A stretch of 63,030 nucleotides of DNA, counting the filler, from Reclinomonas americana ATCC 50394 (Eukaryota): NCBI GenBank assembly GCA_048213135.1. It is 7 parts of 3 records of this genome, joined end to end, with 100 filler letters (N's around TTAATTAATTAA, not from the genome) between each part and the next. Parts side by side here need not be neighbours in the genome. Positions count along the whole stretch, not along the records: positions 59,518 to 63,030 come from PS015209.1; 6 more parts are not named here. One strand, 5' to 3'. Every line of letters begins with the position of its first letter. Position 1 is the first letter of the stretch. The notes under the pieces were generated by a model, which saw only the letters and a list, made by a program, of their open reading frames with translations, was not told the origin of the DNA and ran no database searches. Positions 5,287-61,205 of the stretch are shown in pieces. A program made the translations under genes and the position numbers.

Positions 5287-5719
5287 CTGGAAGTCACGCA
5301 ATCCCAGCAGCACAATGTCTCCCACTTGAATCCACACCTTCTTTCGCAACTTGCCACGAATGTGACACAATCGCTTCTTCCCGTCAAAGCACTGCGCCTC
5401 AAGTCGCCCGTTGCCAAGCATACGCAACACTTGCGCGTACTCTAAGAGAGAGAGACACACACACACACAAAGAGAGAAAAGTGAGTGAGACATTTCACAC
5501 TTGCACACACTGACTTTTGTTTCTTGTCTGTTGTTCCTCACTTTAGTGTTGTGCGCATGTCTCTCTCTTAGTGTGCCTCTGTGTGTGTGTGTGCGTGTGA
5601 GGAGGTGTCCCTGAAATAGACTGACCTTGGCCTTCCTCGCGAATGATCAAGTCGCGCTTGACTTCTGAGTGCGAGGTGCGGCTCTTGCTGTTCTTGCCAG
5701 TCTTCTTCTTCTTCGGCAT
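5287..5719 (-). CDS. EIF1A: Translation initiation factor eIF1A (exons 1-2; 3' exon missing, probably in gap)
   Basis: Exon 5719-5626 MPKKKK...[11 protein letters not shown] plus exon 5441-5287 [52 protein letters not shown]. Confidence 0.95.
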
Positions 5720-6795: not shown

Positions 6796-6839
6796 NNNNN
6801 NNNNNNNNNNNNNNNNNNNNNNNNNNNNNNNNNNNNNNN

Positions 6840-6851
6840 TTAATTAATTAA
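6840..6851. other. Artificial scaffold linker TTAATTAATTAA in N padding (also 16292, 19713, 35080, 52831, 59462)
   Basis: Identical six-frame-stop 12-mer flanked by equal N runs, six times. Confidence 0.97.
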
Positions 6852-6897
6852 NNNNNNNNNNNNNNNNNNNNNNNNNNNNNNNNNNNNNNNNNNNNCG

Positions 6898-31794: not shown

Positions 31795-33427
31795 TCACAA
31801 CCGTAGATTACGAAGCGCCGTTACCGGCCGATTTAGTGTGGGTGGGATCGGCAGCAGCCAGCACAGGATGCAGTCGGAGCCAAGCACGGAGCGGTAGTTG
31901 CGCATAAAGCCGACGTTGTACTGGTGCGCGGCCCAGGTGCGTCGATAGCCGGTGGCGTCGGTGTCGTTGGCCGACTTCATCGCCAGCGCGTCAATGGTGG
32001 TGACATTGTAGGCCAGCATGCACAGGTGCCGGATGAAAAAGTATGTCAGCAGCGAGCACAGAGCCAGCGTCAACACGCTGGCCACCACCAGATGCACGGC
32101 CTGGAATACATCGGGCAGTTCGTCGGTGCTGACGGCTCGTGTCTGCGCACACCAGTGTGAGTCGAACAGGAGAGGTACCCGCAGTCACAGGTGCCTGACA
32201 CCGACACTGACCAGCATGGACAGGGTGTCGAGTGTCACCGGCAGCATGGTGCCGCCCATCCACCCACACAGCAACGCCGTGTACAGCACGGTGAGCAGGA
32301 AAAACTTGTGATTGCGCAAGCCGATGCACTGCCCGACCCACATGCAGTGGTGATCCATGCGCAGAATGCACACGTCGCACGTGGAGCAGTGGTGGGTGCG
32401 ATCGGGTTTGATCTCGTGGCAGCGAAGGCACACTTTCGGGTCGAACAGCACGCCCAACAAGCTGCTGACGAATGGCAGCACATCGTTTTGTGCCTTGTTG
32501 TTGCCACCACTCTGTCCGGGCAGCAGCGGGGAGGAAGCGGCGGCCGCGCCGTCACTTGCCGACAGGGCTCCACTTGGCGGCCGTTTTCTAGCATGCGGCG
32601 GAGAAAAGTCAGAGTCGCGATACCCTTGTCTCCAGCTCTGCACGCGCGCACGCACCTGGGTGCTTGTGGACGATCATTTGTCGGATGCACTGGTCGGCCC
32701 GGCGACACCAGTGCCGCCATCCAGTACGACCACTCGAACAGCAGCAAAATGACACCGCCGACAGAGATGCGCACAATGCACCATGCCTGCTCGCACCCAC
32801 GAAAGAGAGAGAAATAGGTGACGGCAGTGCGGGGAAACAGCAAGGGGCACTCACTCGGAGGAGGCGCGTGCTCGGAAATGATTGAGTTCGACATGTCGTG
32901 CGCGCGAAAAATACACACACACAGACACACACAGGGACACGTGCACTCTCTCTCAGTGTGTGGAGGGCGATGATGACGATGATTGTGATGCGCGCGCACA
33001 TCCACTCGGAGAGAGAGAGAGCGAGGCGAATCACCATCAATCATCTTGCTTTCGCGCGCCAAAATCCTTGTTTTCCGCGCCATGACTGAATCTCGGCCTT
33101 GTTTCTTTCCTCTCTTCTCCCCCACCCTCTCCCACCCCCTACCCCCACCCCTCGTTACCATCAGTGGCAGTGCCGGTCGAGGATCGCCCACCTCGTGCAC
33201 CAAGTGTGGCAACACGGTGTACATGACATAGACGCACACGCCGTACAGCAGCACCAGGTGGGCCAGACACATGCCGAGCACGTTGATCGTCGACTGCCTC
33301 CGTGGTCTGTGTCGCAAGAGGGCGACAGAAAGCGTGCAGCAGGAGTGAGAGAGACGAAAAAGAGAGAGGAAGATCACAATGCCGACAATCACCGTGGAGG
33401 CAGTAGACCAAGTGGCCGGTGACCCAT
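31795..33427 (-). CDS. DHHC palmitoyltransferase (paralogue 1)
   Basis: CLRCHEIKPDRTHHCSTCDVCILRMDHHCMWVGQCIGLRNHKFF; NVTTID; YNVGFMRNYRSVLG. Confidence 0.92.
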
Positions 33428-33551: not shown

Positions 33552-34929
33552 TCAAGATGGCACATCCAAGTGGCGAGGCAGCGCGTCAGCAGTCGCCGGC
33601 AGCCCTGGTGGCACCACCAGAAGCCACGTCCAGTACCGCGAACCAAACACCTGCTTGTAGTTCTCCACCCACGACCTCGGCGGCTGGCAATCCCACGAGC
33701 GCCTTCGGCCGTCGGACTCACCCGCCTCGCGCAAGCGATTCATCTCACCGGTCGTGAGATCGTGCGCCAGCATGTGCAAGTGTCGGCGCAGGAACATGCA
33801 CACCACGCACGCCAGAGACAGCGTGAGGAGTTCCACCAGCAGCACGTTCACCAGGCGACCCGGATTAATAAGTCGCCGGTGACGGCTGACACGCTGCGTT
33901 CGGCGCGTGAGATGAGACACAGATGCTCATACATACACACTGTGTCGACTCACCTGCCCGTGCAGCACATCGACCAAGTCCGGCAGCAGCGTCACCGCCA
34001 TCCACACCGTGGTCACTTGCACGTAAAACACCAGCAGCACAAAGTACTTGTGGTTGAACAGGCCGACACAGTTGCCGATCCAGAAGCAGTGGTGATCGTA
34101 GCGCACACTGCACACGTCACAGTGTCGACAGTGATGTGTGCGCGCACGCTTGATCTCGTGGCAGCGCACACACAGCGTGCTGATCGGCTGCCCGTTCATC
34201 ATCTTTTTGTGAAAGTGCTCGGCCAGCTTGCAATCGTCAAGCAGCACATCGTGCAGCTGCTCCATGCGCTCCACCACTGTCGATCCTGCCGTCTCCTTGG
34301 CTGCGCCCACCTCCGCATCCAGCACCGCCAGCGGCTCGCCCGGCAACATGTTGCGCACCTTGGCATACGCGCGATCCAGCGTGCTGATCAAGTCAAAATG
34401 CGGCGGTCTCCCCGGCGACATCCACGCCGACATGACATACGCCAGCTCAAGCGATCCCACCAGCAGCACCGTGATCACCGAGCGCGCAATCGTCCATCCC
34501 TGCCTCACCACGACCACATGAGGAGACAGCAACATGAGTAAGGGAGGAAAGACGATGTGGTTGGCCGCAACTCTCCACGTCGTGCTCGGATGCGCGTACC
34601 ACGACGGAATGATGCCCTCCACCACATACACCACTGTGCAGTACACAATCGCCGCCTGTGCCAGTGACATGAAGGCCACGTTTTGCAGCGGGAACAGGCG
34701 CTCTCTGCAGACACCAGACACCAGTCAGTGTCTCTTCCTCTTTCTCACACTCTCAGTTGTCTTACCGCTGCGGGAGGAGGCCTATTGGAGGATACGAGCT
34801 CGGCCTCGGCTTCTTCTTGTGCTCCTTCTCATCGTCGTCGTCGGCGTCTCCACCGCCCTTCATCTGGCGAAAGATATCACGATATCCGCGAGCCGCGTCT
34901 GTCCATTGTCTTCTGTCCATAGTCGACAT
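33552..34929 (-). CDS. DHHC palmitoyltransferase (paralogue 2)
   Basis: CVRCHEIKRARTHHCRHCDVCSVRYDHHCFWIGNCVGLFNHKYF; DLTTGE; ENYKQVFG. Confidence 0.92.
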
Positions 34930-35174
34930 CGACTCAAACAACGAATGGGTGAGTGACAACACGCGCCACTCTGTGTTGTCTCTCACTCACGCGCGCGCTC
35001 TCTTTTGTCTCTCCTGCTCTGTATGTGTGTGTCTCNNNNNNNNNNNNNNNNNNNNNNNNNNNNNNNNNNNNNNNNNNNNTTAATTAATTAANNNNNNNNN
35101 NNNNNNNNNNNNNNNNNNNNNNNNNNNNNNNNNNNTCTCTCTGTTGGTGCTCATGTGTGTGTGAATGCACGCAG

Positions 35175-38100
35175 AGTTTGTGGATCGCGCGGCTGAAGTG
35201 AGTGGCGATGAGGAGGAAGATGACGAGGAGGACGAGGAGGAGGAGGAGATGACGGCCAAGGATCGTGAGTTTATCGGTGAGTGCAAACCTGCATTGTGCA
35301 TCTCTCTCTCCCTGCGCAAGCGCGTGTGTGTGTGTTGTCTTTTGCGCGCGCGCGTGGCATGTCGACTCTGACATCGACGACAACTCATGCACGCACACAC
35401 GCAGCTGGTGCCTCGTCGTCGTCGGGAGGAGGTGCAGGTGCGATGCAACGAAAGCGACGACGTGCGCTCTCTGACGATGAAGAAGGCAACGATGACGAGG
35501 AAGGTGCGCAGCCGTCTGCAAAGGATGACGAGGAAGAGGAGGACGAGGAGGAGGATGAAGAGGATGAGGATGAGGAAGAGGAGGAGGAGGACGACGAGGA
35601 CGGGGAGCCGCAGAAGAAGCGTCGACGCATCGTCTCGGGTCGCAAGCTGAAGCAGCGCAAGGAGGAGTTTATGGCCGAGTTGCAGAATCTGCAGGATGTT
35701 GCGTGTGCAGCAGCAAAGCTCTTCCTTCTCCTCTCCCGCTGTGCACTCACTGACACGAGCGCGTGCATGTGCAGGATGCGGTGCGATCGTCGAGTGACGA
35801 GGCGGGTGGCTACTCGGACGAGGAGAAGTCCAAGGCCTCGTCGCAGCGCAAGAAGAAGAGGAGAAGAAAGGAGCATGCGGAGGCGGGCGGTGGTGCAGGT
35901 GGTGCCCGTGCCGGCAGTGACGATGAGGAGGCGGTGGATGCGCTGGTTGCGAAGAAGAAAAAGAAGAAGAAGAAGCTGTCGGTCGTGGACGAGCTGGAGG
36001 AGATGGGCGAGGAAGACGACGACGTGATGCGGTTACCGGAGGATGTGTACGTTGTCCTCCTATGGCTCCTTTCTTTGAGTGCCGAAACGGGGGAACGCTG
36101 ATGCGAATTGTCGTCGTGCAGGGGTGGTGGCGACAAGCGGCTGACGTCGGTGTTTGGAGATGCGGATCTGCTGGCCGACATGTTACCGCCCGACGAAGGC
36201 ATGGAGGAGGGTCAGTATGGCGACGCGGAGGCTGGATTCGATGTGTACAGCCGCCTCCTGCAGCGCTTTGAGCCCGCCGAGCTCGCCGAGCGTCATCTCA
36301 CCGACGAAGATGCCGTCATTCTCCACCAGGACATTCCCGAGGAGCTGCAGGTGAGCCAGCAAGTGTCTTTTTCTCTTGTGCCGACCTCACACACACGCAC
36401 ACACACTCAATTGTCGTGTGCTCGGTTCCAGGTGCGTCTGCGTCGCCGGCCGCCACCCTCACAAGCGGAGCTGGAGGAGGAGACACGGTGGATCTACCGC
36501 ACGTATTTCGAGACGGACGCCTCGACACGCGCCTACGAGGGATTCGGCATTGACGATCCGCGGTACGGCATGTCGTACGCCGAACTCAAGATCAAGGCCA
36601 TTCGTGCGTGCCTGGTGGGCATGCTGTGCGAGCACCTGGAGCCGGGTTTCTTGTGGATGTACCGCCGCGATGACTTTCCAGACGGCACACTGGTTCGCCG
36701 GGTTCACGCACGCGTCGTCATCCACTGCTGGGTGCTGTTTTTGCTCACTGCGATCTGTGCTTTGTTGGCAGACCGCGGTCGATGTGTGGCGTCTGCTGGA
36801 TTATGATGAAATCTGGGTGCGACAGGCCAGGAAGCTGGCCTCGTTGCGTTCGGTGGTGGAAGCCTACAAGGCCGACGAGGCGCGTGCAGTGGACACGGAC
36901 GAGCAGAAGGCGTTCTTGGAAGCGTTTGAGCGACTGGTGCTGCGAGCCGTGGAGGAGGGTGCGAAGGAGGCCGAGGTCGAAGACATGTTTTCGTACTGGC
37001 AAATCATGACCACTGTGGGCGAGGCCAAGTCGCTGGTCCGGCGTGACGAGTACCATCGATTGGTTCGCGTCGGTTTCAACGAGTACATTGCCAAGTTGCG
37101 CTTGAACGTGCACGAGTACCTCGACACCATTATGAATGCCGGTGTGCCCGAGTCCATTGAGGTGCGTTGTTGTGCGCGAGACAGTGTTGGCTTCTTGTCT
37201 CTCTGACTGTGTGTCGTGATTGCGCACCGTAGCCCTACCACTTGGATCCGGTGGAGTTTGTGTCGCAAGAGTGCGAGCCACTGCTGTTCTCCCTGGAGAC
37301 GTTGACAACGGAGGATGCGGTGCTGGCCGGCATTCGCAAGGTGGTGGCCACTCGCATTGCGCACGAGCCGGAGTTGCGACGCCGCATGCGTGATGCGTTG
37401 CGCGACTCGGCCGTGGTGTCCACCCAGCCGACGGAGAAGGGCGACAAGACGATTGACGTGTTCCATCCGGACGCCAATGTCAAGCGCATTGTCAACAAGC
37501 CGGTGTACAGATTCCTGCGTGATCAGGACGACGTGCACTTCTTGCACATGGTGGTGGCGGAGAAGCGTGGACACATTGAGATTGACATTCGAGACGAGGA
37601 GCCGGAGAAGACGATGCAGAGGGTGCGCAGCGTGCATGTGCGCGGTTGCTGTCGCGCTGTATGTTTTGATGTTGACAAATGTGTCGCTCGCAGGTACTGC
37701 AACCCGAGTGCTTCCTCATTGACAGCCACTCTGCACTCGCCACGGCATGGAACGAGCAGCGCCGTCTCATTCTGCAGGATGTGCAGGAGATGTTGTATGA
37801 GGCGTGCATTCCGGAGATTCGCTCCGAGTTGCTGAAGGTCGCCGAGGACAATGCCATGGATTTGTGTGCGCGCAAGCTGCGCAATCTGGTGTACCATCGA
37901 GGATTCGTGCCCCCCGGCTACAATCCCAACGACGCGTCGGGTCTGTTCTCATGCACGGGTCCTGTGTCGCCGGTGCAGGCACTGATTTGTTTACTTGGAT
38001 GATGCAGATCCATGGTTCCTGGTGGCCTGCGTGTACCAAGATGCCAACAACCCCATTCACTTTGTCAAGGTCACCATGGAAGGCGATGTTGCGTTTGACG

Positions 38101-41100
38101 CGTGGTGTTTTCTTTCCGTCATCGTTGTTGTCTGTGTGTACCGACCTGGCGATTGTTGTTGTTCAGTATGTGGATTCGCTGGTGTGGGGCCTGCGCGACA
38201 TGGCGGGCGGCATGCGCTCCGTCGAGTACACGCGGGACATGGAGAGCCAGCATCACACCCTCGCCATGTGGCTGCAGGAGGGCAATGTGCGCGGCCTGGT
38301 GGTCGGTGTGCGTGACCAGACGGTACGACGGCTGCTCGGCGAGCTGCGCAAGCTGATTGACGAGTCCGCCGACCTCAAAGACCACGTGACGCTGATCGAC
38401 ATGGACGAGGATATTGCAAAGTTGTACGAAGCCGGCGAACTGGCCACAAATGAGTATCCCGACTGGACCGACTCGAATGGTCTGGCCAAGAGGTTTGTTG
38501 ATGGGGACAGGGGTGGGCGATTTGGAATTGTGAGCGCGCACGTGCTAATGGTGATCGCAGACGGTGCTTGTCGCTCGCACGACGAGTGCTGGAGCCGCTG
38601 TGGGAGTTCTCCTGCCTGTTCAACACCAACAAGGACATTCTCAAAGTGCACATGCACACGTTCCAGTCGGCGGTTGCGTCTCTGCATGCTTCCTCAATTC
38701 TTGAAAGACCCGACTCCTCAACTCTCTTCTGTGCAGTTGCCGCAAGACCGTCTCATGATGCGTCTGCGAGAGGAGATGCGCATTGTGACTGCCACGGTTG
38801 GTGTGCGTGTGAACATTGTGATTCATCGACCGCACGCGTGGCCAGTGCTGCAATTCGTCGCCGGCTTGGGACCCCGCAAGGCGCCCGATCTGGTGGTGCA
38901 ATTGCAGAAGCTGGAGGTGCGTCTCTCAGAGTGACTCACTTGCGTGTGCCTGCCACTGCTCACATTCACGCACAACAGGGAGGCTGCTTGCAGTCGCGAC
39001 ACCAGCTGCTGCAGCTGGTGGGTGAGGTAGTTTTCAACAATGCGGCTGGTTTCCTGTTTGTGACGCTGGACGACGAGGAGGGCAGTGGTGGATGTTGCGG
39101 CACGCATCATTGTCCTTTGCTGCGCGCTCTCGCTCATCTTGTCTCTTCTCTCTCTCTCTCTTCTTCTCTCGCACGCGACAGCGCTGGTGGAGCGGAGTCG
39201 CATCCATCCCGAATTCTACCCGCTGGCCATCAAGATCGCCGTCGATGCTCTCGACCAGGAGGTCTCACCGGACCCGATTTTGCGCATGCAAGAGTACTAT
39301 CAGCGTCACATGACGTTTGCCGAGTTGCTCGACTCGGATGGCCTCGATCCGCTGCTCAACTACGTGGACGACCTGAAGCGACGCAATCTGAGTGCGGAGA
39401 CACTCTTCCCCGCTGGTTTGTGTTGGAGGGAGGGGAAGGGAGGTGTTGCGAGATGAGCATGCGCTTGACGAATGCTCTGTGAATGCAGCTCAAATCGAGA
39501 AGCTGGGCATGTGTGCGAGCGAGTACGTCGAACGGAGTGTGCCGTTCAGCAAGGAGCGCACTGTCACTGCGTTGGCGGGTTCGTGTGTGGCCCCCGTCTT
39601 GATCATTTCAGTTTTCTTCATCGTTCTCACTTGTTCGTACAGCCGATCGACGGAAAAATGTTGGCAATGGCAACAATGACGACGACCTCGGAGATGACTT
39701 GGACGATGCGGACGACGACGATGATGAGATTGGCGACGACGAGTTGGCGGCCCTCGGCGGCAATGGCGATGACGCGTGCGTGCTTTTTCCTTGAGAGTAT
39801 TCTCCTCGTGCATTCCTCATTCTTTCTGCTCAACGCGACAGTCAACTTGCCGAGGCTCGTGCGGCTCGTCAGCGAGAGCGTGAGGAGAGGCGGCGGCAGC
39901 GTGAGGCGCGACGTCAAAAGTTGCGCAACCACATCGCCATGCAGTGGTTGCGTCAGGCATGCCACACGTGTTGATTGACCGACGATCTTCTTGCAGACGA
40001 CTGCTGGACAAGACTCCGTTGCAGGTGGTGATTATGCGCGGATCGATCATCAGTGCGGCGTTCTTGTGCCAGCGCGAAATCGATCATGCAGGGGAGGACG
40101 AACGACCGCCGTTTGCGGAGCCGACCATGGAGGAGCGATTCCGCATGCTGTTTGGTGACATTCCGGGCGTGACTCTGATGGAGGGCATGCCGGTGTTGGC
40201 CGAAGTCGTCCGACGTTGCGTTGCTCTCATTCTCTCTCACGCACCTTGTCGTATTTACTCAATCTGTGTGCGCGCGCAGCGGCACAAACGGCCTCCGACT
40301 ACAGCGACAACAAGGCCAGCAAAATCATCTGCCGACTCACCGACAACAGCTGTCCTGCCATCTACTTTGCCAACGACCCCACACCCGCCGAGTGCACACG
40401 TGGTTCGATTTTGGATCTGTGTGTGGAGCGTATCGAGTTGCCGCAACCGTCTGTTGCGTGCCGCATTCGTCTTCTCCGCATCTGTTGTTGTGTATTCGTG
40501 CTGGTTGACATTCGTGTCCAGGAGCCATCCATGATGTTGGATATGGCGCGCGACGCGCCATGGTGGGATCGCATGCAAGTCAAGCTGCAGACGAGAGACA
40601 CTACGCGGGAGCGTGATGCGTCGACCCGCAACTTTGACGAGTACCTGAGATTCACGGCACCGCCAGAGTATCGCGCCAGCTCCTCGACCAGTTGCGTATC
40701 GACTGGAGAAAAGCTGATTTGCTGTGCTGTGTGGCTGCTGATTGTGTTCCTGCAGCCAAGCGGTCGTCGCGCACCCTGGTCAGTCGCCCCATCAATCATC
40801 CGTTCTTCCGCAACTGGACGTGGAGTGAGGCCAAGGAGCACTTGAAGGTGGACCATCCATTGTTGGGGCATTTTTCGGGTTTGTCGACTGACATGGTGAC
40901 GTGATCACGCAGGATGCACCGATTGGCGACCTGATCATCAGACCAAAGCCCGGCAACCATGCGCGCCTCTGCATCAGTTTCAAATTCTTCTCTGGTCTCG
41001 TCAGCAACATCGAGGTGGAGGAGAAGGACAAGCCCAATCCATTAGCACTCGGTCAGCGTTTGCTGCTGGACAAGCACGAGTTTGAGGATCTCGACGAAGT

Positions 41101-42195
41101 TGCGTGATGGCGCACCAGTAGTGTGCGCCTCGCCGCGATGACTCATCTCTCTTGGTTAGGTGTGCGAGCGTTACATTGCGCGGCTGATGACGACCGCACG
41201 CAAAATGGCCGAGCACCGCAAGTTTACCGATGCCACCGAGGAGAAGATTGAGGAGATGCTGCAGGCGGAGCTCCGTGCGAACCCGCGTGCCATCCCCTAT
41301 CGCATTGCCGTGCATCGTGCCACCTACCGCTCGATGCATTTTGCCATTTACTACATGACACGGCACTCGTCGCTGATGCACAAGAGCGTCAAGCCGGCAC
41401 CGGAGGGTTTCTACTTCCGCAAGTCGCTGTTCAAGAAGCCGGAGGAGGTGATCAATGCCTTCAAGAAGGACCTGGAGGAGGAATTCCGCAAGGCACGCTC
41501 CAGTCGCAGTCAGCCGTCGCCTGCTGGCGGCGGAAGCTCGCACGGCATGCCGATGCTGTCACCGCTGCAGTCGTACACCTCACCGCTGGTCAACGAATCG
41601 CCTCGGTCGGGGTCGAGTGGCTCCGCCATCTCCACGCCACCCATGCACTCCAGTACGTCGTCGTCGTCGTCTTCGATCAGCAAGCTTCTTGCGCATTGCG
41701 ATACTCACCTCGTGCGTCTGTGTGTTTGCAGACTCGAGCATGGATCGCTGGATGTCGGCAGCGCGCGGAATCGCACCTCCGATACCATCGCCGAGTATGC
41801 ACTCTGGTGTGTCGACTCCTTCGCCGTTCGGTCGCCCCAGTGGCGGCGGCGGCGCACCGCCACCACCACCACCACCACCGCCGCCATCTGGTGGCAGCTC
41901 GTTCTCGGCACCGCGACCACCACCGTCGTCGTCGGGACGTGCGGTCGGCAGCTCACCAGCCCGCGATTCGTACGGAGGTGGGGGAGCTGGGGGGTACTAC
42001 AACCAACCACCACCACCTCCACCACCACCGTCGTACCCGCAGCAGCCGTCTCGATACGACAACAGTCCGTCGATGGCCACTCCACCACTTTATCAATCGC
42101 CCAGGTCGGGAAGGCACGGTGCTCCGCCACCACCGCCTCCACCACCACCGCCGCCGCCTCCAGAGCGTGCTGACGACGATATGGAAATGGACTGA
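35175..42195 (+). CDS. SPT6: Transcription elongation factor Spt6 (5' end at scaffold edge)
   Basis: Acidic N-terminus, FEPAELAERHLTDED..DIPEELQ, LQFVAGLGPRKA (HhH), VFNNAAGFL, SRIHPEFY, tandem SH2 (INHPFF..FEDLDEVCERYI); about 20 introns. Confidence 0.95.
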
Positions 42196-52786: not shown

Positions 52787-52886
52787 NNNNNNNNNNNNNN
52801 NNNNNNNNNNNNNNNNNNNNNNNNNNNNNNTTAATTAATTAANNNNNNNNNNNNNNNNNNNNNNNNNNNNNNNNNNNNNNNNNNNN

Positions 52887-55941: not shown

Positions 55942-56033
<92 letters not shown>

Positions 56034-59000
56034 GTCGTGTGTGTGTGTGTGTGTGTGTGGGGGGTGTGGCGTGGGGGGGGGGGGGTTATGACTGTGCCCT
56101 TGAGCACTCTTGCATCCTCTCTTCAGCTTTTCTTCTTTGTCCACGTGGTTTTTTCCTCTTCCTCCTCATATCCTCGCTCTTCGCTGTGCTTGACTCTGTT
56201 TCTCTCTCCCTCCCTCCTCCCCTCGCTCACCCTTCCCGTCCTGCAGGTTCCAGGCCGGCGGCAGCGCCGTGTACCGCCTGCAGACAGTACCACTCATCGT
56301 CACCGCCGCCTCGTCGACTCCAATCATCTCCTTTGCCGCTCCGCCCGTGCTCAAGTACGGCAGCGCCAACTCGATTGTGATTGGTTCCTCTGCCGAGAAC
56401 CTCACCGACTGCACGAGCTTCAAGCTGGTGCCGGCGGGCGCCGACTGCGCCACTCTGTCGGACTACTCGACACTGACGGGCAGTGTCGGCGCATCGTTCG
56501 CGAGCGCCGGTGCCGATGCGTGCCAGTTCATCACTGGCTGCCGCCTGTACCGCGCCACCATCACCCCGAACGGCTCGACCGGCGGTGGTGCCTTCAAGTT
56601 GTGTGTGGCGGCCAATAATGGACCGTACGTGCCGGCGGAGGAGTCGTTCACCTCTGGGTTTATGACTGCCGGCGGTCTCAGTCCGAGCAGCCCCTTGCCC
56701 TCGTCGACGCCTCTGGCCGCCAAGCCGAGCATGTCAACACTGGCGGTGACAACGACCACCATCCAGTTCACATTTGCGCGCGAGTTCTTCCGCCGTCCGC
56801 GCGTGTTGCTCGGCTTCACCAGTGTCGGCAGCCAGGTCACTGGAGGCATTTCCACCCAGGCGAACGAGCCTACTGATGGCACCTTTGCATTCTGTGCGGA
56901 GCCGGTGGTGACTGTGGCGAGGCTGTCATCTCGCTGCTACGGCGTGTCGACTAACGGTCAGCCGGGACCGACCATCACACTGAGTTGCGTTCACTGAAGC
57001 GCGGAGAGAGATAGCGAGAGGAGAAGTGTGACTCACGTGCTGCTCGTGCAGGCTACCTGGCGTACTATGTGCACCAGACCAATGCGCTGTCGATGGATGG
57101 TCAGCGCACGCTGACGAGCAAGGCGTGGTTGACGGATGCGGTGAACAAGAGCAGCTCATCTGTTGCGTCTCTGTTTATCTCATGTATGTCCGCCACGTCA
57201 CCGAATGTTGACTTGCCCGGCGATGCGCAGTTGGTGAGCGTGTCGTCCCTGTACCAGTTTGCGTCGGTGCCGTCCATCCCCGTGGCCGTGATGGGCGTGC
57301 TGTCGATCCGCCAGTCGGCTGTCGGCAGCGATGGTCGCATTCGCGGCGACAACTTTTCGCTGTCGAACAGCTCGGCCTCGCGCTCCAGCTTCGTCCTCAA
57401 GGGCACGGTGAACGGCGACTCGCGCATCGAGGCAGTGTCGGCGCGCTTTGCTGTGGCACCGACTCGCCCCGACAGCACCAACAACAGCGGATTCGTCATG
57501 CTGTCGGGTGGTGCGTGCTTTGCATACAGACAGGCTTTCTTTATGGCGATCGGCGGACAGGTTCTTTGGTCCGCCGCTGCCGTCATATCTTTCTCTCTTC
57601 CTCTCTTCTCTCAGGCGTATGTGTGAGAGAGTATTGCAGTGCGAGTGAGATAAGATAAGAAGCACAATCGATTCTCGATCGATCCTCGCAGTCTTTCTCA
57701 GTCACGATCGGTGAGCACTCACCACGCCTCTCTCTCGCACACACGCTCACCTCTCTCTCGCTGCATGTTTGTGCGTGTGTGTGTGTGTGTGTGTGTGTCT
57801 TTCATATATCATCCCTCTCCACGCCCGCCCCCCCCCCTCCCCCTCCTCTCTCTCTCTCTCTGCATTTGAGAAATTTTGTCTAAAATATTTTGTCCAGAAA
57901 CGACGCACCCCAGCAGCGCATCGACGCAGACCGCCAGTCTGGTGACGCCGTCGACCCCCAATGGCCTGCTGCGTGCCACCATCAGTGTGCAGCTGTTCTT
58001 GCGTGGGTGGAAATCGTCGGCGGTCATTGTGCAGAACCGCGTCGATCAGCAGTCGCTGCAGTTCACCACCAAGCGCCTCGGCAACGAGGACTACGTGACG
58101 GCAATTTCGTTCAACGCCAGCGGCGCGGACACGTCAGACGTTGTGTACGTGACGTGGGTGGCGATTGGTCGTGCGGCGCAAGGCGCGCCGATCACGTGCC
58201 CAGCCGGCTACAGTGGCTCCAACTGCGGCGTGTGCACGCTGCCCGACGGCACCACGACGTGCTCACTGAACCGACGTGCGGTGCTCAGCTGCGCCTACGG
58301 CACCACTCAGATTGTTGCCGAGTGTGCCGAGGGTCGCGAGTGCTCGGAATCGTACGGCACGGCGCAGTGCGAGTGTTCGACTGATGGCACCACTTGCTCG
58401 AGTGGGGGTGACTGCTGCAGTGGAAATTGTGATGGCAATAATCAATGCGCGCCGGCCTGCGTTGGTGACCTGCCTCTGGGCGAGCGCTGTCGTGGAAACG
58501 ATACGTGCTGCTCTGGCCATTGTGTCTACGGGGTTTGTGCTTCAAGCTGCGGCAGTGATGGACAGAGCTGCTTCCGCGGCGAAGAATGCTGCTCCGGAAA
58601 TTGTGACAACACGGGCATCTGTGCACAACCATGCACTCTGGGTGCCATTGGCGATTCGTGCTCGTCGGCGACGGAATGCTGTGATGGCTTTTGCGTGTAT
58701 TCAGTCTGTGCATCCAGCTGCGGCGCAGACGGCGGAAGTTGCAATGGCGACTCCGAATGTTGTCCGGGTAGCTCGTGCCAGTATGGCACGTGCACGGCAG
58801 CATGCACGCTGGGTGCCATTGGCGACAGTTGTGAAAACGTTACTTCTTGCTGCAGTGGGTTTTGCGTGTATTCAGTCTGTGCATCCAGCTGCGGCGCTGA
58901 CGGCGATCGCTGCAATGCTAACGATGAGTGCTGCTCATCCGTTTGCAACAACAGTCTCACGTGTGAGGCGGCATGTACGGCCGAGGGTGGCAGTTGCAGC

Positions 59001-59395: not shown

Positions 59396-59644
59396 GTACG
59401 TACGTACGTACGTACGTNNNNNNNNNNNNNNNNNNNNNNNNNNNNNNNNNNNNNNNNNNNNTTAATTAATTAANNNNNNNNNNNNNNNNNNNNNNNNNNN
59501 NNNNNNNNNNNNNNNNNGAGAGAGAGAGAGAGAGCAATCAAGAAAAAGAGAGATTGAGAGTGGCAAGACAGCTGAGAGACGGAATGAAAGGCAGATAGAC
59601 GACGCGAGAGAGTGGGAGAGAGACACTGCAAACGCGAAACGCAC

Positions 59645-60879
59645 CACGGCACAATGGCTGTTGCATTCCGCGAAATGTCGGCACGAAAAACGGGTGAGTT
59701 GGCGGAATACAGGATGACGACAACGAGTGGGAATCACGCACCACCGACCACACCGACCGGCTCGTGGCGGGTGAAGGTAGCCAGCTGCAGAGAGAGAGAG
59801 AAGGAGAGTGAGCAAATAAAAAAGAAGAAAGTGGTGGCGAACACGGTGCAGACGAAACGTTGCCACCTGACAAACACGACAGTCAGCAACAACGACAAGC
59901 AAACAAGGGTGAGAGAATCAAAATGCAACACACCGGCTGGGATCACCTTGCCGCAGTTCTTGCCTGCACAGCGAGAGAGAAGAGTGAGGAACTACACTTG
60001 TCTCGGAACAATTCACAGCGGGAAACAGCAAACAACAGCACCAGCCCAGCCAGCGCTGCACACACACAATGCACAGTCGGCAGCAGTCGCAAACAGGTGA
60101 AAACAGACAATGTGAGAGGGACAAGTGAAAAGAGACGTGAGAAAGAGAGATGCAAAGGCGCAACTAGTAGCGGAAGTGCTTAGCGGCGCCAGCCATGTCG
60201 ACATCGCGCGCTTGCTTCACCGGCTGCATCAGCAGCACGTGATTGCATCAGCACACGAAAGAACAGTCAACCGAAAAATCACTCTGCCACAAGAAGAACA
60301 CCTTTCCGTTGTCCATGCTCTCGAGGACCGCCAGGTTATCGGCGTTCTCCTCAATGAGCTCGGCGAGGCGGTTAAGCAGGCGGTAACGCTCGTCGCCTAC
60401 ATAACAGAAGAGAGTGTAAGATGACGTAAATGTGTGGGGGAGAGAGAGAGAGAGAAAAAGGCGTGTACCAGTGGACTTGCGCCAGGTCTTGAAGGCCTCA
60501 GTGGCAGCGGCCACGGCCTTGTCGATCTTTACAGAGACAAGACAAGTGAGAAAGAGAATAATTTCTCCGATGATGACAATCATCATTATGAAAGAAGAGT
60601 GTATGAGACGCAACATCAGCGGCATCACCCTCGGCGACCTGTGTGTGTGTCACAGAGAGCAGGATGAGTGACAAGAGCAAAAGAAAAGGGGCGAAATGTC
60701 GCGCTGCAAACAAACAGACACGCGCGTTGCAAAGAAGGATGCACAGATTCTCTTTGTTTGTCGTGTGTGTCACGTAACTTCCACAATGACTTCCTCAGTG
60801 ACGGGGTTGATGACGGGGAAGGTCTTGCCGGAGACAGCCGGGACGAACTCGTTGTTGATGAAGAGCTGAGAGAGACACA

Positions 60880-60910
<31 letters not shown>

Positions 60911-61205
60911 GAGAGAGAAGGAGGGGAGGAGGAGGGAGAGAGAGGGAGAGGGAGAGAGAGTGTGTGCGAGTTCGGAGAATCACCGGAGTGAGATGCGAGA
61001 AGAGTGTGAGAAGGTGACAGGAAGAGTGTGTGTGTGTGTGCGTGTGTGCGTGTATGTGTGTGTGTGTGTTCTGAGAGGAGAGAGAGAGGCACAGATCTCT
61101 CTCTCTCTCTCTCTCTGTGTGCGTGTGTACGTGTGTGTGTGCGAAATGATATTGTTTGTAAGACGCAACGAGTGGCGGGGGGAGACGGACGCTGGAGCTG
61201 GCCAT
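59645..61205 (-). CDS. ALDH: Aldehyde dehydrogenase (ALDH1/2-like), N-terminal 11 exons
   Basis: LFINNEFV..SGKTFPVINP, VAEGDAADIDKAV, LESMDNGKP, FRYYAGWA, TRHEPVGVVGAIVPW. Confidence 0.95.

Follow-up and report, generated by a model that had tools for sequence, protein, structure and literature searches.

The ALDH gene near the end of this stretch raises the question of whether the last base of an exon decides which of two kinds of donor the following intron carries. A sequence-only reading had noted that the ALDH introns after an exonic G begin with unshifted donors of the GTGCGT kind, that those after A, C or T begin with shifted donors of the GTTGCGT kind, and that the last exon base therefore appears to set the donor register. 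We examined this proposal in ALDH itself and among the introns predicted across the window, by which we mean the whole stretch of 63,030 nucleotides that was analysed, an intron-rich draft scaffold of a eukaryote with about 57% G+C and 18 runs of N.

In ALDH the observation is confirmed. All 11 donors lie on the minus strand at the positions that had been proposed, with the preceding bases that had been given. The six that follow G are all unshifted, and the five that follow A, C or T all fit GTT(G, A or T)CG(T or C) (Fisher p = 0.0022). The exons, which in order measure 36, 87, 24, 58, 95, 59, 14, 30, 8, 43 and 13 nt, join into 155 codons without a stop, and all ten complete introns are of the GT-AG type and leave an open frame when removed. 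The gene continues on the far side of the N gap at 59418-59517; because the gene enters this gap, the acceptor of intron 11 falls outside the window. Intron density is high: the first 155 codons hold 11 introns, roughly one for every 42 nt of coding sequence, and three of the exons (14, 8 and 13 nt) are microexons.

The placement of these donors has the support of homology. A protein search with the ALDH piece gave one match, the ALDH homologue P0001, which aligned to the joined exons with a score of 330 and 75 identities in 152 residues; three short gaps in this alignment lie within exons 2, 4 and 9, and none lies at a splice junction. The reading frame of exons 4-5 also matched Pfam Aldedh (E = 1.2e-7). 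At each of the ten complete introns we swapped in the other in-frame GTs within 45 nt and rescored the homology, and every swap cost 10 to 59 points of score, except where no alternative free of stops was available. Since this test makes no use of a donor motif, the ALDH donors are fixed by homology independently of the motif. The coordinates of these introns, and of those discussed below for the Spt6 gene, are collected in Table 1.

Table 1. Positions of the ALDH and Spt6 features in the window. The slash marks the exon-intron border, with the last exon base in lower case; costs are losses of homology score for alternative donors.
Feature	Position	Strand	Donor	Remarks
ALDH, 5' part	59645..61205	-		11 exons; ATG at 61205
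ALDH intron 1	60866..61169	-	shifted, c/GTTGCGT	acceptor TCTCAG; alternatives at +39 and -21 cost 10 and 12
ALDH intron 2	60639..60778	-	shifted, a/GTTACGT	
ALDH intron 3	60527..60614	-	shifted, t/GTTGCGT	
ALDH intron 4	60397..60468	-	unshifted, weak, g/GTACAC	
ALDH intron 5	60224..60301	-	unshifted, weak, g/GTGTTC	site 30 nt downstream costs 14
ALDH intron 6	60056..60164	-	shifted, a/GTTGCGC	
ALDH intron 7	59964..60041	-	unshifted, g/GTGCTG	14-nt exon precedes
ALDH intron 8	59867..59933	-	unshifted, g/GTGTGT	
ALDH intron 9	59785..59858	-	shifted, c/GTTTCGT	8-nt exon precedes
ALDH intron 10	59658..59741	-	unshifted, g/GTGCGT	
ALDH intron 11, donor	59639..59644	-	g/GTGCGT	placed by reading frame and motif only
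Spt6 gene	about 35165-42195	+		Pfam on stop-free frames
Spt6 intron	38673..38736	+	shifted after G, g/GTTGCGT	four homologues span the junction; the sole alternative donor costs 94
Spt6 intron	41099..41159	+	shifted, a/GTTGCGT	found with 4 of 5 Spt6-like homologues; three align across the junction
Spt6 donor	38917..38922	+	unshifted, g/GTGCGT	alternatives cost at least 55
Spt6 predicted donor	39776..39781	+	unshifted, c/GTGCGT	gene finder; homology does not decide

To cover the remainder of the window we used a Viterbi gene finder that combines codon log-odds, an acceptor matrix and a donor score, the last taken over intron positions +3 to +9 from two class matrices. The exon side is left unscored, and the -1 base can therefore vary freely. 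The finder called 124 introns, distributed over 20 gene models; the shifted class accounts for 48 of these introns, and 96 of the 124 carry a clear donor motif (score of at least 3). It recovered eight of the ten complete ALDH introns, including those around the 14- and 8-nt microexons, and its errors in this gene were to put intron 5 at 60271, to fuse exon 1 to the upstream gene and to miss the last two donors. We also drew a filtered set of 63 introns, comprising those no longer than 400 nt that have a motif score of at least 3 and an acceptor score above 0 and for which splicing is required to keep the frame open. The window-wide counts given below are thus counts of predicted introns in 63 kb; homology supports ten introns in ALDH and about eight junctions in Spt6, and the two classes have been sharpened by training their matrices iteratively from seed motifs.

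The link between donor class and -1 base holds beyond ALDH. Among all 124 predicted introns, 43 unshifted donors follow G and 33 another base, as against 6 and 42 for shifted donors (Fisher p = 6e-7). The corresponding figures are 30 and 24 against 3 and 39 for the 96 introns with a clear motif (p = 3e-7), and 21 and 14 against 2 and 26 for the filtered set (p = 1.4e-5). When ALDH was taken out of the filtered set, the 59 introns left were divided 20 and 14 against 2 and 23 (p = 8.5e-5), and with other intron penalties p lay between 1e-6 and 8e-5. We further replaced the donor score with a flat one that treats all GTs as equal. The motif was then present at 64 of the 195 chosen donors, compared with 10% of GT sites, and the motif-bearing donors again divided by class, with 19 unshifted after G and 13 after other bases against 4 and 28 shifted (p = 1.9e-4). 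At motif sites in the window that were unused as donors we found no link to the -1 base (73 after G and 505 after other bases for unshifted sites, 18 and 102 for shifted sites; p = 0.46).

These results bear on the possibility that the pattern is due to chance or to the way in which the exon borders were drawn. ALDH supplies a sample of only 11 sites, and the borders were picked by eye and were partly motif-led. Yet homology places the ALDH donors without the motif, and the link survives both the removal of ALDH and a motif-blind donor score and is absent where the motif is unused; we find it scarcely credible that an artefact of this kind would account for it.

It is clear that the link is real, but that it is a tendency rather than a rule. 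The stronger claim, that the last exon base sets the register, does not survive the 96 donors with a clear motif: 24 of the 63 that follow a base other than G are still unshifted, and 3 of the 33 that follow G are shifted. Given these exceptions, the perfect division in ALDH is best seen as the lucky extreme of a real tendency. The sequence-only reading had itself listed unshifted donors after a non-G base near 1608, 36047, 39392, 39776 and 41653, and all five are present. The two classes also depart differently from background. G at -1 is enriched at clear unshifted donors (30 of 54, against a background of 26%; p = 6e-6), whereas shifted donors have it in 3 of 42 cases, a frequency that does not fall significantly below the 15% at which G precedes GTT (p = 0.2). 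The shifted class is accordingly one without enrichment of G at -1; avoidance of G is not demonstrated.

Two further groups of donors deserve mention. At 11 of the 24 unshifted donors after a non-G base, and at 9 of 14 in the filtered set (for example 33239, 37632, 39776 and 36047), a G is found at -2, a pattern that hints at a third register with a bulged -1 base. In addition, donors of the form g/GTTTGT or g/GTTCGT recur on the plus strand, at 12768, 18142, 18372, 25166, 38493, 39416 and 39579; these have T at +3 and GT at +5/+6, follow G, and stand outside the shifted class.

Spt6 offers a second gene in which homology can be brought to bear on the donors. An exhaustive protein search with the Spt6 piece yielded 18 relatives, all of them weak, and a spliced aligner with linear gaps over-called introns in this gene, so we kept those junctions that were common to several homologues. 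Alignments to these weak homologues that span a junction give six shifted donors, after T, T, G, T, A and A, and three unshifted donors, after G, G and A. The shifted donor at 38673 is the clearest counter-example to the -1 rule. It had been put forward as the one shifted site preceded by G. The site is indeed such a case, but it is not the sole one, for an exact GTTGCGT also follows G at 39947, inside a predicted intron.

Other searches for comparative material were less productive. Protein searches with the SH2 piece of Spt6 and with the uS5 piece returned no matches, and the organism is without a close annotated relative in the protein libraries searched. No relative emerged when metagenome data were scanned with an Spt6 exon, and an eIF1A exon retrieved 80 loci, none of them a usable relative. 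None of these loci longer than 2 kb comes near the GTTGCGT density of the window (about 0.6 per kb); two shorter ones, of 1.1 and 1.4 kb, contain 2 copies and 1 copy, for densities of 1.84 and 0.70 per kb, and such small numbers allow no judgement. Within the window, two tandem DHHC paralogues gave two comparable intron pairs, and as both are unshifted they are uninformative.

We note several features of the window that surround these genes. Pfam also identified genes for eIF1A, an FHA protein, RhoGAP, uS5, a metallo-beta-lactamase-fold protein, an ankyrin protein and the two tandem DHHC proteins; the scan of listed stop-free frames covered the first 300 of 512, with the remainder (36674-63028) outside it. 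The best PDB matches of the uS5 gene (20823-22277, minus strand) are bacterial 30S S5 chains and not cytosolic uS5. Being of bacterial type, this protein probably has an organelle role, and for the same reason we dropped uS5 as a check on exon borders. The DHHC palmitoyltransferase paralogues (32188-32673 and 33930-34724, minus strand) have two introns that share an identical stretch of 17 nt, and the finder fused the two genes. The six scaffold joints at 6796-6895, 16248-16347, 19669-19768, 35036-35135, 52787-52886 and 59418-59517 each consist of 44 N, TTAATTAATTAA and 44 N. The last of these cuts the ALDH gene and is adjoined by an (ACGT)n run at 59396-59417. A long T/A homopolymer run at 22952-23137 and a (GTC)n run at 55942-56037 both abut assembly gaps.

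The GTTGCGT motif stands out even when gene models are set aside. The window contains 39 copies, compared with 12.4 +/- 3.5 in shuffles that preserve dinucleotides, and none of 100 shuffles reached 39. The base before the motif is T in 19 copies, A in 9, C in 9 and G in 2. When all 16 dinucleotides before TGCGT were tallied, an excess was seen only for GT (39 against 12.5 expected), GG (27 against 12.7), TG (33 against 15.8) and CG (29 against 18.8); the TG excess belongs largely to (TG)n repeats, by our reading of the list of sites. AG, conversely, is depleted (5 against 12.7 expected). One copy, at 5422-5428 on the minus strand, is a chance occurrence in a coding exon of eIF1A, where it encodes V-L-R of the conserved domain and is not a donor.

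The sequence-only reading had also proposed that the two kinds of donor are forms of a single element, and G/GTGCGT and /GTTGCGT do align as one G-K-T-G-C-G-T. The consensus of one class, W-G-G-T-G-C-G-T, matches that of the other, W-G-T-T-G-C-G-T, when moved by one base, and the agreement extends into the exon. Base composition at -1 of the shifted donors (A18 C8 G3 T13) is like that at -2 of the unshifted donors that follow G (A11 C4 G4 T11; p = 0.71). The -2 profile of the shifted class fits the -3 profile of the unshifted-after-G donors (p = 0.46) and differs from their -2 profile (p = 0.03), and moving the unshifted-after-G profile by one base makes the shifted class 12.3 bits likelier at positions -2 and -3 together. 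Among predicted donors, then, both the donor consensus and the exon flank behave as a shifted register would have them, coming into agreement after a move of one base.

We therefore believe that the causality is better put the other way round: instead of the exon's last G choosing the register, the intron's own first G takes the slot of the exon's last G in the shifted class. As the slot is filled in this way, the shifted class needs no exonic G at -1, and its -1 position acts like a -2 position. The first G of the element is itself often missing, as follows from the 24 of 54 clear unshifted donors that come after a base other than G.

Donors are known to show dependence between the -1 base and positions within the intron, and this favours a more ordinary account, namely that there are two unrelated donor consensus types together with compensation, such that the strong GTTGCGT needs no exonic G and the weaker GTNNGT sites lean on one. 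ALDH would seem to agree, because four of its six donors after G are weak (GTACAC, GTGTTC, GTGCTG and GTGTGT) and all five shifted donors are near consensus. The window as a whole does not. In 9 of 13 strong, exact GTGCGT donors the -1 base is still G, against 3 of 42 in the shifted class (p = 2e-5); unshifted donors score equally on the motif after G and after other bases (4.93 and 4.96, p = 0.81); and compensation does not predict the one-base offset at -2 and -3. We consider this account unlikely.

The exon side also weighs on the idea that the shifted class pairs with U1 in the normal register, with one U of +2/+3 bulged. Such a register has the merits that it exists in human cells, according to the accessible portion of PMC4856993, and that it keeps the cut aligned with U1 as normal. 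It would, however, lead one to expect G at -1 to be as common in the shifted class as in the other, or commoner, and the frequencies are 3 of 42 and 30 of 54. This deficit, together with an exon-side profile that is offset by one base, makes a +2/+3 bulge quite improbable.

At their 3' ends the two classes are alike. The acceptor YGCAG, a CTCAY motif, base composition and a median length near 72 nt are common to the predicted introns of both, although part of the likeness at the 3' end is built in by the acceptor matrix. The acceptor is strict, Y-G-C-A-G (for example at 60056, 59964 and 38736), and of 76 predicted introns 59 have G at -4 and 73 have C at -3, figures that are somewhat inflated by the same matrix. 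Both classes occur side by side within genes: ALDH has five shifted and six unshifted introns, and 9 of the 22 predicted introns of Spt6 are shifted. We looked as well for introner-like mobile introns, and rejected them when an all-against-all blastn of the predicted introns of up to 400 nt returned just two short pairs.

These shared signals tell against a separate machinery for the GTTGCGT introns, whether a second U1 variant or a separate, U12-like snRNA. A long, almost invariant donor without an exon-side G does recall the U12 type. But the two classes do not differ in 3' end, CTCAY motif, length or composition, with the reservation just made for the 3' ends, and the classes are mixed inside both ALDH and Spt6; we rate a dedicated snRNA as very unlikely. 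What we regard as demonstrated are the two classes, their link to the -1 base, the one-base offset on the exon side and the common 3' signals.

We are thus inclined, by a modest preponderance, to the reading that there is one element, W-G-K-U-G-C-G-U, which is read in a single register, most likely by U1, and is cut at the GU that it contains. Under this reading, the spliceosomal introns would carry one 5' recognition element, of roughly that form, and the first factor to mark the donor, most likely U1 snRNA through its 5' end, would read it in a single register, with the G of the element opposite the second C of the U1 CC pair and UGCGU opposite the stretch 5' of CC. The cut would be set later, at the GU within the element. 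If K is G, this GU would begin at the second G and the first G would stay in the exon, giving G/GUGCGU; if K is U, it would begin at the first G, and the cut would fall one base upstream, giving W/GUUGCGU. Shifted-register pairing, rare among human donors, would then be employed by about 40% of the predicted introns here.

The suggestion that the element is read in a fixed register fares well insofar as a shared register is supported. As for the components, the role of U1 as the reader, a match between its 5' end and UGCGU, and the setting of the cut by U6/U5 are all inferred, and the canonical U1 is an awkward fit here. With the canonical 5' end, duplexfold gave energies of -1.4 to +0.5 kcal/mol for shifted sites and did not return the shifted register, and the sequence G/GUUGCGU paired more strongly (-5.6), yet is rare among donors. 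The conserved C also fits poorly opposite the U1 pseudouridine. Because canonical pairing is weak, the model requires either a U1 5' end adapted to UGCGU or help from protein. An Rfam scan of the window reported no snRNA and no other family.

A fuller version, which we offer tentatively and would not yet bet on, is that recognition and choice of cut are uncoupled on a genome scale: a remodelled U1 would read UGCGU and the upstream G, about 40% of introns would be cut one base upstream, and the third group, with G at -2 and another base at -1, may bulge the -1 base. If confirmed from RNA, the organism would offer a natural case of a non-canonical U1 register serving as a main mode of donor recognition and not as a rarity, and how the spliceosome sets the cut independently of U1 could be tested in it directly. 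There is a practical side to the matter for annotation as well: a single donor matrix anchored on GT would mis-score about 4 of every 10 donors here, and would also expect a -1 G that is absent.

Comparison with known systems helps to place these donors. U12-type donors are long, nearly invariant and lack an exon-side consensus, and the shifted donors resemble them in being long, nearly invariant and without an exon-side G. They differ in donor sequence and in sharing their 3' end and branch-like motif with the other class. Branch-site and 3' signals of their own, as U12-type introns would have, are not seen in the shifted class, YGCAG, CTCAY and length being the same in both.

The unshifted consensus, G/GTGCGT, is the same as that of the Mamiellophyceae, where the donor is GTGCGTG in Ostreococcus and AG/GTGCGT in Micromonas (PMC2483917 and PMC3879977, as far as their accessible text extends); a GTTGCGT class goes unmentioned for them in that text. 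The candidate branch motif is CTCAY here, unlike the CTGAC of those algae, and we claim no kinship. Metagenome loci L036 and L009, which are presumed to be Mamiellophyceae-like, have many g/GTGCGT and only these, with no GTTGCGT class. In a literature search that left subscription papers mostly outside, GTTGCGT or GUUGCGU was unreported as a donor consensus and turned up in unrelated uses only. The G/GTGCGT donor is thus already known from Ostreococcus and Micromonas, while for GTTGCGT as a major shifted class we found no report.

The closest parallels come from human donors. Roca and Krainer reportedly described, in 2009, U1 pairing in a shifted register with atypical human 5' splice sites, and the +2/+3 bulge register is said to have been described by Roca et al. 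in 2012. The bulge would account for the one additional base that separates GU from the consensus further downstream, but the -1 G that it predicts is absent here (3 of 42). Tan et al. 2016 (PMC4856993) describe the shifted register, and also U1 pairing away from the cut, with U6 then setting the cut; the same source discards a bulged -1 register for human cells, and estimates the validated non-canonical registers together at 1.5% of human donors, compared with the 39-44% of predicted donors (48 of 124 overall) that fall into the shifted class here. The core in this genome, UGCGU, also differs from the human consensus. In its predicted geometry the shifted class nonetheless follows the human shifted register closely: all contacts of the donor move by one base with respect to the cut, cleavage is still at GU, and the first G of the intron replaces the last G of the exon.
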